From Gemmatimonadota bacterium (GTDB taxonomy: Bacteria > Gemmatimonadota > Gemmatimonadetes > Longimicrobiales > Gaopeijiaceae): 64,000 nt of DNA. The notes under the pieces were generated by a model. That model did no database searches. It was not told the origin of the DNA and saw only the letters and a list, made by a program, of their open reading frames with translations. The position numbers and the translations under genes were made by a program. Positions 14,733 through 20,143 of this stretch are shown in pieces. The DNA lies in contig JBDHHQ010000053.1 of NCBI GenBank assembly GCA_039589315.1, positions 1-64,000 on the forward strand. Reading direction: 5' to 3'. The stretch's first letter is position 1, and each line of letters starts with the position of its first letter.

Positions 14733-14801
14733 GAACTCGCGATCGAGAGCTCCGAGGCGGCGGTTGGAGAGAAGAACCCGAATATATGCCGAAACCACCC
14801 G

Positions 14802-15815
14802 CTACGAAAGAGCGACCGAATCCCCCACCTCGACCGGGAGCGGGATCTCGATCGACGAGCCGCCACCCGCTTGGAAAGGAATGAAGTACACGTCCAACTG
14901 GAAGCAACGCTCCCCCGCCATCCTCCGGAACTTGTGTACCGTCGGGGCGAACCAGGATTGGCTCTCCTCGCCTTTGAGCACGTGCCAGCAGACGTGCGGT
15001 GACTTGCCGACGATGGCCCGCGCGACCTGATCCAATAGCCCGTCGACCCAGGGCCCCGCTTCATGCGTGGCGTCTCTTTGCCACGTCGAGATCACCTGTT
15101 TCAGCGGCGTCCCCTCCCTGATGTCGGGCATTCCGAAGTGGCCGGCCGACTCCTGGTCACACGACTGTACCTCGGCCCTCGACAGGACCAACTCCCTGGC
15201 CCGCTGAAGGTCGGCCGTCCGAAGGACCTCTTCGACCTCGATCGGCAACCGCAGAGTGAGCTGCGAGAATGTTACTGATTCGTCAGTGGGCCCGAGGCCG
15301 AGAGACGCCAGAGTCTTCTGCAGCTCGTCGAAGAACTCTTCAGCGATCTCGTCGATCTCCTCAGAGTCCTCGTTCCACTGGGTCAGCGGGCGAGCTTGCC
15401 TGGGAAAGAACGTCGCATCGGTGAAGAACGTAGTGACGAAGCGGTGAACGTCGGTCCTCTTGCGAAGATCTACCCGGATCTCGTCTTCGAAGGGGTCGGG
15501 TACGTCGTCTGTACACTGAAAGACGAGGATCTCCGTGTCCCGGGTCTCCGGATCCAACGCCACACCGCACTCCCACATACAGAATGACCAATCCCTTTGA
15601 TCGGTCGTGTATAGGAGAATGAGCACCTCGGACCGGAACAGCTTGTCGAGCAGCTCGTCGTCCAACACCCGTCCGATCCTCAACCCCGCCCCGAACTCCG
15701 AGGACTGAAACACCTCGACCTGCCCGAGAGTCCGTTCCTCGATGAAGCTGCGGACCACGTCCGCCAACTTCTGGTCTTGATGTTTATGGCTCAGGAAGAC
15801 CATGGGCCTTGGCAT
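14802..15815 (-). CDS. TIR-domain protein with uncharacterised C-terminal domain
   Basis: VFLSHKHQD..FQSS..LILLYT..WSFCMWECG (Glu at the TIR catalytic position); SD GGAGG-n8-ATG. Confidence 0.8.
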   Translation of the reverse strand: MPRPMVFLSHKHQDQKLADVVRSFIEERTLGQVEVFQSSEFGAGLRIGRVLDDELLDKLFRSEVLILLYTTDQRDWSFCMWECGVALDPETRDTEILVFQCTDDVPDPFEDEIRVDLRKRTDVHRFVTTFFTDATFFPRQARPLTQWNEDSEEIDEIAEEFFDELQKTLASLGLGPTDESVTFSQLTLRLPIEVEEVLRTADLQRARELVLSRAEVQSCDQESAGHFGMPDIREGTPLKQVISTWQRDATHEAGPWVDGLLDQVARAIVGKSPHVCWHVLKGEESQSWFAPTVHKFRRMAGERCFQLDVYFIPFQAGGGSSIEIPLPVEVGDSVALS

Positions 15816-15871
15816 GACTCTATCCTCCGCGTGACTATGACACGCTCAATGCGTCACGTTGGTCTCTTCGT

Positions 15872-18526
15872 CTATGATCTGAATCCTCGCCGCCATTGCC
15901 TGGCGTCTCCGAACATGTGCTCGAGAGGAGCTTCACTCTCCGCGAGAAACAACAACGAGTCTCCGACCTTGATCTCGTATTCAAGGTCTTTGGGAGGGCT
16001 CGTGAGGTAGACGTCCCGGGCCTCTTCTCCGTTGCCCGTGTGACTGACGCCGTGCGAGGTCACGAATCCCGGCGCGCCGTTTCGGTGAATCGAGACCAAC
16101 AGCACTCCGAAATCTCTTCCGAGCAAGAGGGCCTTGTCGAACGTCTTACCTTCAAACTGCTCTTTCTCGTTTCCACTGACGGGCACCTCGATCAGCTCGC
16201 TGCCGCGCTCGACCGTGAAGACCTCCTCCATGAAGTGGCTGAGGCCGGGGTTGAGCACGCTGTGAGCCAGCAGTTGCTGGTCGAACTCCTGACCGCAGAC
16301 GATCTGATTCACGTGGATCGCCTCGAAGATCCCCCGATTCTCAGGATTGGTCAGCTCGACGACTGTGTGGAGCCGCGTATTCCGCTGCTTGCGCTCACAC
16401 TGCCGGTGTGCCTCCTTCTCCACCACCGAAGTGATGAAGAGCGTCTTGGCGTCCCGATCCTCTCGGTTGACGTTCTCGTCTGCCAATACCACAACCACAT
16501 CGGCACGGTCGAGCCGTGCATCCGACAGGTGAGCCAGCTTGCTCGGCGAACCGTCAACCACCAGGGTCGTCGCCAGCTCTTCGTCTTTGAGCGGCTCGCC
16601 CCCGAAGGGAGCCACCACCACGACGTTTCGACGGCGGCCCTGGAGCTGGCCACTCGAGAGTGAACGCACCAGCCCAGGCCCTCGTTTGTTCCAACCGCAG
16701 ATGATGACGTGGCCGTCCAGGTCACCCGAGGCGTCGTGAAGCTCCATTTTGAGACTCCTTGCGAATCGATCCGAAGCAATGACACCGAGGCCAAATACCA
16801 CTCCGGTTATGCCCAGAAGCCCGATCAGCGCGCTCGAGACCTTACCCCTCACGGACAGGGGGAATCTCTGGTCGTCGAACCCGCTGGCTGCGAAGACGAT
16901 CATCCAGATCAAGTTCTCACCGAACGTCAGGTTCACGAACTCGCTGTTCTCGCCCCGCTCGCGCGCATAGTCGATCTCGGCCATTTGCACGAACACGGAC
17001 CCGAAGAACAGGAGTACGATCACGAATACGGGGATCAATAGCTTGCGGTATCGCCCCGTGACGCCGTCTGGTCCTACCAGCGCCCCCACCCTTTTCGGGG
17101 ACAAGCGAAGCAGCGCACGGCGCGCCCTCTTCGAGAAGCCCAGAACCATGAACACGATCCCCAGGAAGGTGACGAGGACGACGCCCATCTTGAGGCGCCA
17201 ATACTCATACGTGAATGCGCAGGCCTTGCCGGCGTCGTCGCAGTACGTTTGGGCGGCTGCAGGATGAATCGGGATCGCGATACCGTCCGTGAGACCCGTG
17301 GTGCCAAGACTCGGCTGCCCGGGCAACGAGATTTCGTCAAGGTGATGAAGGAGTGCCTCCGTGACGCGATCGACCATCTTCGAAGAGAATAGGTCGGCCC
17401 GTGCCAGGAGGAGCGCTCGAATGCTGACGGTGGCGACGGAGGTCGAGTCATCGTCGTGTGTATGTTCGCCCTCGGATACGACGGCGCCCTCCGCGGCTGC
17501 AGACTCCTGGTGAAGCGCCTCCAGGATTTGCGCCAAGACCCTGCGGTCGCGCGCTTCGGGGGAGTCCGGCAGTGGCCTGTTGTCGACGTAGTAGGGGCGT
17601 TCCTCCGGGTCGACCAGGTGCTGGAGAAGCCCCTCTTCTAGAGAGACGTAATTGGCCTTGGCCTCCTCGACCATCTGGTCGACGGAGTCGGTCCTCATGG
17701 TCGTCAGGAAGACGAGGTCTGTAGTCGCCTCACCATCGTCACGGCCGCGGTCGGGATGGAGAAGGCGTGCCTCTGCCCGCGGGCCGATCCCTTCGTGGAG
17801 TTGGAGCGTGGGCACGCTGTCGAGCTCCGCGTGCGTTATCAGCTCCTCCAAGACGATCGTTGCGTTTGCCCGGGTACCGCTTCCCTCGGGTCCGATAGCG
17901 ACCCTCAGCGGCTCCTTGTCGGTCAGCATGGTCTTGAGCTCATGCGTGGTTCGCAGATGGAGCGACTCCCGCGCGATCAGAAGGACTTCCTCGTAATGGA
18001 GGCCCATCACGGCCCGGAGCCTGTCACCCCGTAGATTGAACAGGCGGTGAAACCACGTTTCGGCTTTACGCGCATCGAATGCGACATCGGATTGGGCGAT
18101 GGCAAGATCGGCCTCACCATCCGCCAATGCGCGCGCGTTTTCCCACGATCCGCTACTCGTCCGCAGTAAGACGGTGTAGGGCGTCTCGTCCTGGATGACC
18201 TTGGCGATGCGGCAACCGATCTTGTGGTAGTTACCCCCCGACGAACCGGTCCAGAGGATCAGCACTTTCGAGTTATCTGTCTCAGCGGACCGCTGAGGTA
18301 CCGGCCGGCATTGCGGACTGGTGGTGAATTCCGCGTAGGCATAGAACTCGCCCGCAGTTGAATCGCTGAACTGCAGCTTGGGGTTGGATCTCACGGCGAG
18401 GAAGACCATGACGAGGGCGAACGCCACCCCAGCCAGGCTCCAGATCTGAGCGCGAGAGGGGCGATACCGCTCCAGGAGGCGATGGTGCTTCTCGGGAAGC
18501 CGAGCGGGATACATGGGAGACCTCAC
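15872..18526 (-). CDS. TAXI solute-binding domain - 2TM ion channel - RCK (TrkA-N/C) fusion
   Basis: TAXI motifs TGSSGGNY, SSGSWEN, LAIAQSD, AIGPEGSGT, PIHPAA; pore LTFGENLIWMIVFAASGFDD..P.S.RGK; RCK GHVIICGWN, DGSPS, ADVVVVLAD, NPG, IKVGDSLLFL. Start may be ATG 18514. Confidence 0.82.
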   Translation of the reverse strand: MRSPMYPARLPEKHHRLLERYRPSRAQIWSLAGVAFALVMVFLAVRSNPKLQFSDSTAGEFYAYAEFTTSPQCRPVPQRSAETDNSKVLILWTGSSGGNYHKIGCRIAKVIQDETPYTVLLRTSSGSWENARALADGEADLAIAQSDVAFDARKAETWFHRLFNLRGDRLRAVMGLHYEEVLLIARESLHLRTTHELKTMLTDKEPLRVAIGPEGSGTRANATIVLEELITHAELDSVPTLQLHEGIGPRAEARLLHPDRGRDDGEATTDLVFLTTMRTDSVDQMVEEAKANYVSLEEGLLQHLVDPEERPYYVDNRPLPDSPEARDRRVLAQILEALHQESAAAEGAVVSEGEHTHDDDSTSVATVSIRALLLARADLFSSKMVDRVTEALLHHLDEISLPGQPSLGTTGLTDGIAIPIHPAAAQTYCDDAGKACAFTYEYWRLKMGVVLVTFLGIVFMVLGFSKRARRALLRLSPKRVGALVGPDGVTGRYRKLLIPVFVIVLLFFGSVFVQMAEIDYARERGENSEFVNLTFGENLIWMIVFAASGFDDQRFPLSVRGKVSSALIGLLGITGVVFGLGVIASDRFARSLKMELHDASGDLDGHVIICGWNKRGPGLVRSLSSGQLQGRRRNVVVVAPFGGEPLKDEELATTLVVDGSPSKLAHLSDARLDRADVVVVLADENVNREDRDAKTLFITSVVEKEAHRQCERKQRNTRLHTVVELTNPENRGIFEAIHVNQIVCGQEFDQQLLAHSVLNPGLSHFMEEVFTVERGSELIEVPVSGNEKEQFEGKTFDKALLLGRDFGVLLVSIHRNGAPGFVTSHGVSHTGNGEEARDVYLTSPPKDLEYEIKVGDSLLFLAESEAPLEHMFGDARQWRRGFRS
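16745..16760 (-). promoter_or_regulatory. Internal ribosome-binding site and in-frame ATG at the start of the RCK domain
   Basis: AAGGAG-tctcaaa-ATG on the minus strand; Met594 of the ORF-track protein. Confidence 0.55.
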
Positions 18527-18967
18527 AGAGGGCCTGGTGTGGGACTCGACACCGGCGGCAATGCAGACTTATTGGATGCGGTCGCCTAGGAACCGCTTCG
18601 AAGACGAGGAGCTAGCGCGGGCGCTCCGGACTTGGTTGGCTCTGATGCACACCCGAGGATCGGGCTGGTCGCGTTGGGGCGGGGGGGCGGCCCTGTTTCG
18701 CGACTCTCGGTCGTTCACGATAGTTGACACGAACCACTGTGGTATGCAAGGAAAACCTCACTAGCGCCGAATCGCGGAGTCACCGATCGAGGACTTGAAG
18801 GGCCGCTTCGATGCGGGGCGACTCGGAACGAGCGAACGTTGTGGCGGCGCAGTGAACCAACCCCGGGGCACATGACCTTCGCGGAAGCGATTCTCTTGTT
18901 CCTATCCCGGTCCCCACGAAGATTGCAGGGTCGCTGCCCAGCCCCCGGTCAGCCAACCCCGCCTCCC

Positions 18968-20143
18968 ATGAGCAACGGACAGGACCGCGCCCTCGAACGA
19001 CTCTCCGCGGCATTCGCGGAACGACGCCTGACCCTCTACCTGGGCGCCGGCGTCTCCGTGGGGAACGGGCTCCCGACGTGGGAGCGGCTAGTCCTGGCCA
19101 TGTACTTCTCGGTCATGAGTCAGCAGCGTTTGGGGTCCTGGCGCCCGTTCGCCAACTACCTCTACGCCATCGCCGAGTGGCAGCTGGGTCAGACCAGCGA
19201 GCCGCTGGAGATTACCGCGCGCAAGCTCCGTAATCTCTACGGGTCCGATGGGGACGGGCGAAACGACCGAGAGGCGTTCCTCCGGGACCTCTGGGAGACC
19301 CTGTGGGCCGGATTCGTCGACGTAGAGGGCCGCCCCTCGGACGAGGTGCATCCCCAGGCCATTCGTGAAGGCAACCCGACGCTCGACGCCGTGGCCAGAC
19401 TCATCGAGGCCGGATCAGCCAGCAGGGGTGTACGGGGTGTCATCACGTACAACTACGACAACCTGGTGGAGCTCGTCCTGGAGGGGGTGCGCCATCAGTC
19501 CATCTACCAGGTCGGTCCGCTGGAGGACGACGCCTTCCCCATCGCCCACGTCCACGGCTTCGTTCCCCTGAGCGGCGAGGGCTCGCTGCCGGACGACATC
19601 GTCTTCACCGAGGACCAATACCACATGGCCGCCCGGGACCCCTATTCGTGGGCCAACCTGGTCCAGATCCAGGCCATGTCGAGCACGGTGGGGCTGATGG
19701 TGGGCCTGTCGCTGTCGGATCGAAACATCCGGCGGCTGCTCGACGCCATCGCCCAGGCCCCCCTGGACTCGGAGAGCTTCATCCTGCTACAGCGTCCCCC
19801 GCGAGATCCGCCGGAACTGGAGGAGCTCTCCGGCATTCATGAGAAGGCCGTCGCCTACCTGGACCGATTCCGTCGCAGCGGCATCAAGGGGGGTGACGAA
19901 GATCGCATCGAGACCACAGGGACACACGTCGGCGTGAAGTCCGCCCAGCCCACCCCCATGTCCAGCTCGGGCGTGAAGGGGCCCATGTACGCGATGCAGA
20001 TCGCGGGGATCCTGGAAGAGATCCGGAAGGTGGACGAGGATCAGCAGACCAAGGTCCTGGGCCAGTTGGGCGTGCACCCCATCTGGTACGACAGCCACGA
20101 CGAGATCCCCGAGATCCTGAGCCGGATCCCCGGCGGGAGTTGA
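18968..20143 (+). CDS. SIR2-like (SIR2_2) domain protein
   Basis: YLGAGVS..GLPTW, ITYNYDNLVE, HVHG, IVFTEDQY, LMVGLSLSDRNIRRLL; start inferred at ATG 18968. Confidence 0.85.
   Translation: MSNGQDRALERLSAAFAERRLTLYLGAGVSVGNGLPTWERLVLAMYFSVMSQQRLGSWRPFANYLYAIAEWQLGQTSEPLEITARKLRNLYGSDGDGRNDREAFLRDLWETLWAGFVDVEGRPSDEVHPQAIREGNPTLDAVARLIEAGSASRGVRGVITYNYDNLVELVLEGVRHQSIYQVGPLEDDAFPIAHVHGFVPLSGEGSLPDDIVFTEDQYHMAARDPYSWANLVQIQAMSSTVGLMVGLSLSDRNIRRLLDAIAQAPLDSESFILLQRPPRDPPELEELSGIHEKAVAYLDRFRRSGIKGGDEDRIETTGTHVGVKSAQPTPMSSSGVKGPMYAMQIAGILEEIRKVDEDQQTKVLGQLGVHPIWYDSHDEIPEILSRIPGGS

Follow-up and report, generated by a model that had tools for sequence, protein, structure and literature searches.

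What kind of protein places a TAXI-type solute-binding domain ahead of the pore and RCK ring of an ion channel, and to what would it respond? The question is raised by an open reading frame (ORF) on the minus strand at 15872..18526 of the window, the whole 64,000-nucleotide stretch analysed here (contig JBDHHQ010000053.1 of the Gemmatimonadota bacterium assembly GCA_039589315.1). This one stop-free frame of 884 amino acids (P0001) joins an outward amino-acid-binding clamshell, a potassium-channel-like pore with an altered filter and an inner regulatory ring in one chain. Judged from sequence and structure models, the best explanation of the product is a cation channel of the pore-loop type, placed in the MthK/Slo/CASTOR superfamily and carrying an outside sensor of its own; it probably belongs to a large and apparently unstudied channel family whose members respond to outside glutamate-like molecules.

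A first-pass annotation had read the frame as an anchor helix, a TAXI domain, an extra transmembrane helix, an M1-pore-M2 unit and RCK, and this layout was borne out by profile matches, hydropathy and fold comparison with MthK and KcsA. Hydropathy places four hydrophobic helices, at residues 27-45, 447-465, 496-514 and 563-585 (numbering throughout follows the 884-residue form), the first of which (18392..18448; all parts of the protein lie on the minus strand) stands behind a basic tail and is predicted to be a signal anchor or signal peptide. The TAXI domain (residues 86-432; 17231..18271) scores 95.5 bits against TIGR02122, whose cut-off is 84.35, with both lobes present, matches NMT1_3 with an E-value of 2e-21 and contains a helical, acidic insertion of about 40 residues (318-362; 17441..17575) that is absent in all seven of the closest homologues. 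Behind it come the extra transmembrane helix, TM0 (447-465; 17132..17188), a basic cytoplasmic linker with short helices (17042..17131), M1 (496-514; 16985..17041) with an outward extension that forms an acidic turret, the pore helix and a non-canonical filter (16871..16915; W541, then A-S-G-F-D-D at 547-552), and the inner helix M2 (563-585; 16772..16840). The RCK N-lobe (604-772; 16211..16717) and C-terminal subdomain (773-872; 15911..16210) complete the chain; the N-lobe, of the MthK/Slo/CASTOR type, is supported by TrkA_N (E-value 1.8e-6, above the cut-off), whereas the proposed C-terminal part is supported by a fold match to MthK and not by Pfam TrkA_C, which, like Pfam Ion_trans_2, gave no match in the fusion protein. 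The likelier product is an 880-residue protein from the ATG at 18514, because the GTG at 18526, from which the 884 residues are counted, sits within a Shine-Dalgarno-like GAGGT motif 5 nt upstream of that ATG, and because the public record holds the 880-residue form.

An assembly misjoin between TAXI and pore is rejected for two reasons: first, five more records of the protein's own cluster carry the same fusion on contigs of 89.9, 70.9, 5.8 and 3.7 kb, and among the own-cluster records two have one residue changed and one has a 9-residue deletion. Second, when 1.84 billion representatives were searched with a profile, TAXI and RCK stood in one chain in 137 of the 150 best-scoring clusters (50% identity), across which the fusion is kept at 19-41% identity; counted from these best 150 matches, the family holds at least 137 fused clusters, the remaining 13 being fragments or tandem-TAXI proteins. 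Seven full-length homologues are 36-38% identical to the window's protein. A working set of 145 sequences, with eight near-duplicates removed, comprises 78 of 650-900 amino acids, 57 of 900-1150, six longer and four shorter. Three members (P0123, P0154 and P0162) have two TAXI domains ahead of the pore. In P0079 (1436 amino acids) TAXI, pore and tandem RCKs are followed by a helical domain and then a C-terminal TIR domain (E-value 1e-19), and P0085 (1283 amino acids) has the same tandem-RCK arrangement and helical domain without TIR. As a separate observation, P0031, P0086, P0098, P0113, P0129 and P0144 have no pore and consist of TAXI domains in tandem, two to four per protein; P0098 has trypsin-like and DsbA domains in addition.

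The fusion is patchily distributed. Its named carrier genomes are two Gemmatimonadota and one Rhodothermales; the commonest labels of the Atlas clusters extend this to Acidobacteriota, Myxococcota and Bacteroidota. Among 401 Gemmatimonadota genomes sampled, with two candidates scored per genome, the full fusion was found in one, the window's own. None of 56 candidates on viral contigs was confirmed as a fusion carrier, and all eight plasmid records were TAXI-only, none reaching 80% coverage. In a quick tree of pore plus RCK, built from 61 of the 138 eligible fused rows and 62 stand-alone RCK channels, the 61 fused rows and one TAXI-less relative, L176, are separated by a single branch (SH-aLRT 98) from the 61 other RCK channels, and the TAXI and channel trees show similar subclades; the fused family may have a single origin.

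The charge of the loops fixes the orientation. Between TM0 and M1 the loop has 10 K/R and 1 D/E in the window's protein and carries a net positive charge in 138 of the 145 members, and the turret between M1 and pore has a net charge of zero or below in 133, which places TAXI and the filter outside and RCK inside, as the first-pass annotation had supposed. On sequence and models, the pore thus lies in the normal potassium-channel orientation, with TM0 crossing inward behind the TAXI domain. A cysteine pair ahead of TM0 (C429 and C436), invariant in all eight close sequences, fits an extracytoplasmic linker between TAXI and TM0. An N-terminal hydrophobic stretch is found in 119 of the 138 Met-starting members, and seven members resemble lipoproteins; the long N-terminal anchor is peculiar to the window's protein, most relatives starting with a short signal-peptide-like stretch.

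The nature of the outside signal is indicated by the binding pocket. In the TAXI protein VcGluP, glutamate is contacted by Y45, S75, Q93 and E125 (available text of PMC11574862 and PMC12718363), and the accessible part of PMC11574862 gives a 213-fold loss of glutamate affinity for Y45A and a 990-fold loss for Q93A, with Q93 present in 54% of 59 TAXI proteins. Profile alignment maps VcGluP Y45, S75, Q93, E125 and G156 onto Y100, S127, Q145, E179 and G217 of the window's protein. Across the fused family the tyrosine is kept in 136 of 137 readable members, the serine in 125 of 138, the glutamine in 140 of 141 and the glutamate in 138 of 142, and all four are found together in 121 of 137. In 36 stand-alone TAXI proteins, by comparison, the glutamine is present in seven and the glutamate in four. 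The best solved structural matches of the TAXI domain are the glutamate-bound proteins 1us4, 8u79, 9ibo and 8s4j (Foldseek E-value 5e-17 for 1us4; TM-score 0.81 on target for the TAXI fold). The conservation indicates a pocket under strong selection that appears built for alpha-amino-acid binding, with glutamate or glutamine the best guess for the predicted ligand. Of the two gating inputs originally envisaged, the external ligand is therefore supported by almost invariant ligand residues; the internal nucleotide is unsupported.

GxGxxG after the first strand is the mark of the nucleotide-binding RCKs of KtrA, TrkA and KefC. It is found in none of the 132 readable RCK motifs among the 145 members, and the window's protein, with a first strand of the MthK type, has GWNKRG at this position, so that internal nucleotide gating of the KtrA type is unsupported. 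The calcium ligands of MthK, D184, E210 and E212, map unevenly: E210 corresponds to a conserved E724, E212 to T726, and the register at D184 is ambiguous. With one ligand of three mapping clearly, the MthK calcium site appears only partly recognisable in the RCK sequence.

The pore has a recognisable fold and an unusual filter. The family profile aligns to MthK over pore and RCK with an E-value of 1e-24. An AlphaFold2 model of the whole protein from a 53-row alignment (predicted local distance difference test, pLDDT, 81.7) finds its best structural matches in glutamate-bound TAXI proteins and the next in MthK and Slo1, and for a second model, limited to the channel part, the fold matches are full-length MthK (Z 18.9, root-mean-square deviation (rmsd) 9.5 over 304 aligned residues), the pore of KcsA (Z 11.3, 2.5 over 101) and the ring of CASTOR (Z 17.5, 3.0 over 230). 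Both models are monomers, and they show a pore fold like that of KcsA and MthK. The pore Trp, filter Gly and Pro are conserved in 71, 93 and 98% respectively. The potassium signature TVGYG is nevertheless missing: T.G[YF]G occurs in none of the 145 filters, which have the core SG in 82 and TG in 34, with an acid within four residues past the filter Gly in 125. Potassium selectivity is therefore unlikely; we infer from the filter residues a pore that passes cations with little potassium preference, the permeant ion possibly being Ca2+ or Na+.

Channels are the sole recurring partners among 96 neighbour ORFs. These were taken from 101 ORFs at 29 loci, a set that counts L176 and five fusions that are broken or cut, after three duplicates and two TAXI fragments had been dropped. 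In seven of the 29 loci (L139, L140, L142, L145, L146, L150 and L151) a potassium channel with six transmembrane helices and the filter TVGYGD lies no more than 7 bp downstream, and in five of these a gene for MscS lies upstream; such a cluster of MscS, TAXI channel and potassium channel is an ion-homeostasis setting.

Taken together, the evidence tips, by a narrow balance, towards a tetrameric cation channel, coupled unlike GluR0, whose activity both an outside amino acid and the RCK ring would modulate. Four subunits would assemble around one pore, the outside clamshell would bind an alpha-amino acid and the filter would conduct the cations. The most speculative part is the coupling: since the clamshell is tethered through lobe I only, its closure would have to be relayed by the free lobe touching the turret or a neighbouring subunit, or else along TM0 and the helix of the inner linker. 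Closure would bias a gate under the joint control of the RCK ring, which would respond to a probably non-nucleotide signal, and the likely output would be a shift in membrane potential or ion content when the outside amino acid changes. A fuller version can be entertained tentatively, with the chances against it: a separately evolved bacterial glutamate-gated channel, in which the pore, non-inverted and possibly permeable to Ca2+, is opened by an intact TAXI clamshell over a coupling route other than that of iGluRs, RCK integrates an internal signal and some lineages have TIR wired in. If this is true, a single bacterial protein would connect outside glutamate with membrane potential.

Several observations weigh against the amino-acid-modulated cation channel. 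Both termini of a TAXI domain lie in lobe I (accessible part of PMC12718363), which leaves nothing to pull directly at the gate in the manner of GluR0. Domain placement in the whole-protein model is uncertain (predicted template modelling score, pTM, 0.60) and a contact between clamshell and pore is not readable from it. The residues past the filter Gly vary across the family beyond expectation for a highly selective pore, and the filter register relative to MthK is ambiguous by one residue. In the side-chain pocket Y200 and D157 of VcGluP are replaced by L and T, so that a different amino acid may be bound, and the low frequency of the pocket residues in 36 stand-alone TAXI proteins (Q in seven, E in four) is not independent evidence because these controls, chosen by the same profile, come mostly from one clade. 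Nor are the channel clusters independent evidence, six of the seven loci being close kin at 64-86% identity. Finally, a clearly intact TAXI-less relative exists, if only one (L176) against 29 distinct fusions (30 loci with a fused ORF) among 160 loci.

Comparison with known systems indicates that the fusion protein belongs to neither the TRAP nor the ionotropic glutamate receptor (iGluR) family and is like MthK with an added sensor. MthK (PDB 1lnq, 6oly) and Slo1/BK, its best profile and fold matches, share with it the order M1-pore-M2 then RCK, the first strand HxxxCGW and the normal pore orientation; they differ in having TVGYG, and the fusion protein adds an extracellular TAXI domain and TM0. 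With TtGluBP (1us4/8u79) and VcGluP (8s4j/9ibo) the fold and the five-residue ligand set are common, whereas the fusion protein is joined to a channel. The pore of iGluRs is inverted. GluR0 and the iGluRs share the plan of a clamshell amino-acid-binding domain on a pore-loop channel, but in them the binding domain comes as two segments, S1 and S2, on either side of the pore (available text of PMC2950845), while in the fusion protein the TAXI domain is whole and ahead of TM0, the pore is non-inverted and RCK follows M2. The plant nuclear Ca2+ channels CASTOR/POLLUX/DMI1 resemble the family in a non-TVGYG filter with an S-G core, in RCK similarity (E-value 7e-27) and in the tandem RCKs and Castor_Poll_mid matches of many family members; CASTOR, with the filter ADS(A)GNHA, is a working Ca2+-selective channel (PMC6697748, in the text available). 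It differs in that its essential filter Asp, D265, corresponds to A547 here (A/G/L/F/V in the family column), in having no TAXI sensor, and in that the window's member has one RCK.

The architecture appeared novel at first sight, and it still does: no characterised family with TAXI, pore and RCK was found in the literature searched, outside which lay subscription journals, TCDB, InterPro architecture pages and supplements. A review of AMPA receptors that came up says nothing of RCK. The word 'channel' is absent from the main text of the TAXI papers PMC11574862, PMC12718363 and bioRxiv 10.1101/2024.11.27.625746, and TAXI, RCK and TrkA go unmentioned in the accessible part of the prokaryotic iGluR survey PMC2950845. 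Amino-acid-gated pore-loop channels known so far follow the GluR0/iGluR plan. If the preferred reading is true, the family would offer a new gating mechanism, in which a different binding domain is combined with a pore of normal orientation that has a non-potassium filter and is followed by an RCK ring; CASTOR and other RCK channels that lack TVGYG would have a bacterial counterpart, and there would be a direct candidate for the bacterial conversion of outside glutamate into electrical or calcium signals.

An alternative is uptake fed by a binding protein, in which TAXI would capture the amino acid and the fused membrane part would transport it. The precedent is the TAXI-GltS fusions (bioRxiv 10.1101/2024.11.27.625746), where TAXI, a transport receptor domain, is likewise recruited in one chain to a non-TRAP membrane protein; the degenerate filter and the peptidase genes beside four fused loci (L001, L003, L130 and L131) are also in line with uptake. 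However, GltS is a Na+/glutamate elevator transporter, whereas the partner here is a pore-loop channel with a KcsA-like pore module (rmsd 2.5 over 101 residues); moreover, the outer mouth, acidic in 125 of the 145 members, disfavours an anionic solute, and there is no coupling domain. Argued by analogy, this explanation is unlikely.

It is also unlikely that the protein works as a transmembrane receptor whose pore is vestigial or does not conduct, and in which the outside ligand would rearrange the RCK ring and so signal to partners or fused effectors. The variable filter tails would suit such a receptor, as would the TIR domain behind the two RCKs of P0079 and the long C-terminal tails found in 64 of the 145 members. 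These tails, however, form one BLAST-linked group and are a second RCK wherever Pfam could resolve them, and the TIR fusion occurs in one of the 145 members. The conserved filter Gly and pore Trp and Pro, together with the lack of any conserved partner gene besides channels among the neighbour ORFs, also argue against it.

A further possibility, and a rather improbable one, is an ordinary RCK-gated channel to which a passenger TAXI domain is merely tethered, serving a TRAP transporter in trans. In its favour, a fused DctQM of the TAXI type lies elsewhere in the genome (L085, G000:C5:35612-37624, plus strand), on a contig, C5, where no TAXI binding protein was matched, and the existence of L176 shows a relative without TAXI. 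Against a passenger stand the rarity of such relatives, the persistence of the fusion over deep divergence with similar subclades in the TAXI and channel trees, and the tandem-TAXI versions P0123, P0154 and P0162. A TRAP membrane subunit had been reported missing from the window, and this is correct more widely: none is on the contig, the four TIGR02123 matches in the genome being on C5, C25, C65 and C15, and a tblastn search for DctQM found none beside the fused loci while matching 24 of 29 stand-alone TAXI loci (L100-L128). Elsewhere in the genome, a 451-residue TAXI protein with an N-terminal helix and a C-terminal extension (L082, G000:C50:26493-27848, minus strand) adjoins a probable signalling gene, with no DctQM in its locus.

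The surroundings of the gene raise the possibility of a role in defence. Channel and TIR gene occupy a block of approximately 4 kb (14800..18850) of low guanine-cytosine content (0.613, against 0.676 +/- 0.018 for the genome's 4-kb windows, 0.2% of 2906 windows being as low), which is absent from the syntenic site of the same-genus genome G001, where the same flanking genes stand without it; the two were thus gained or lost together. No insertion-site repeats above chance were found at the block edges, and a promoter scan gave no sites and three terminator-like sites against 2.8 expected. The TIR_2-domain gene (14802..15815, minus strand, 337 amino acids) lies 56 bp downstream of the channel on the same strand. 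In its product Glu82 is invariant in all ten aligned relatives and the motif MWECGVA is invariant; a C-terminal domain of about 200 residues belongs to no known family (best score only 0.78 in an ESM Atlas search), and some of the ten relatives have CBS or DUF4351 tails. This TIR family was found in one of the 401 Gemmatimonadota genomes sampled. The divergent SIR2_2-domain gene (18839..20143, plus strand) is part of the flank, conserved along with it in G001, and its product has weak similarity to ThsA, LmuA and Dsr1 with no clear system; Thoeris-type matches of the flanking genes are a weak ThsB (E-value 2e-4) and a partial ThsA (E-value 1e-9), the SIR2 gene being divergent and without TIR in G001. 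A conserved TIR/SIR2 system as a family trait was considered and is unsupported, TIR links being rare elsewhere and SIR2 belonging to the flank.

At other fused loci the links are scattered. No TIR neighbours were found at the closest homologues L001, L130, L131 and L132 with a small TIR profile that also missed a TIR-like gene 43 bp upstream of the channel at L153, so that these blanks are weak; the L153 gene is itself below cut-off (Pfam CAP12/Pycsar TIR, E-value 0.001) and its product is unrelated to the window's TIR family (probability 0.1% by profile comparison). Near-full-length PADLOC matches lie within three genes of four of 28 loci (Avs2 at L137, PDC-S01 at L003, PDC-M09A at L145 and HEC-06 at L140), whereas none comparable was seen by eye near 30 stand-alone RCK channels, a control of 107 ORFs, two genes per side, whose spans are unmatched. 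At L137 the Avs2-type gene (L137:9418-13674) is immediately downstream of the fused channel on the same strand. The channel gene travels in variable islands, and a defence role does not follow. A defence or stress module, in which an NAD-derived signal from TIR would open the channel through RCK, or the channel would be an abortive-infection effector sensing amino acids from lysed neighbours, is therefore very improbable, for all the co-oriented TIR gene, the TIR fusion P0079 and the PADLOC matches, given that islands gather mobile genes of any function, that the channel has no PADLOC match itself and that its RCK has no nucleotide motif.

Two observations concern channels without a TAXI domain. 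L176 (L176:6168-8150) has the filter SGFD and is followed by a separate RCK gene, with an alginate lyase/heparinase gene upstream. Among L004-L080 and L160-L208, many stand-alone RCK channels with two transmembrane helices have other non-potassium filters, of the FAGEP, GQGEF, GQGDS and FENS types, and these form several distinct unstudied clades.

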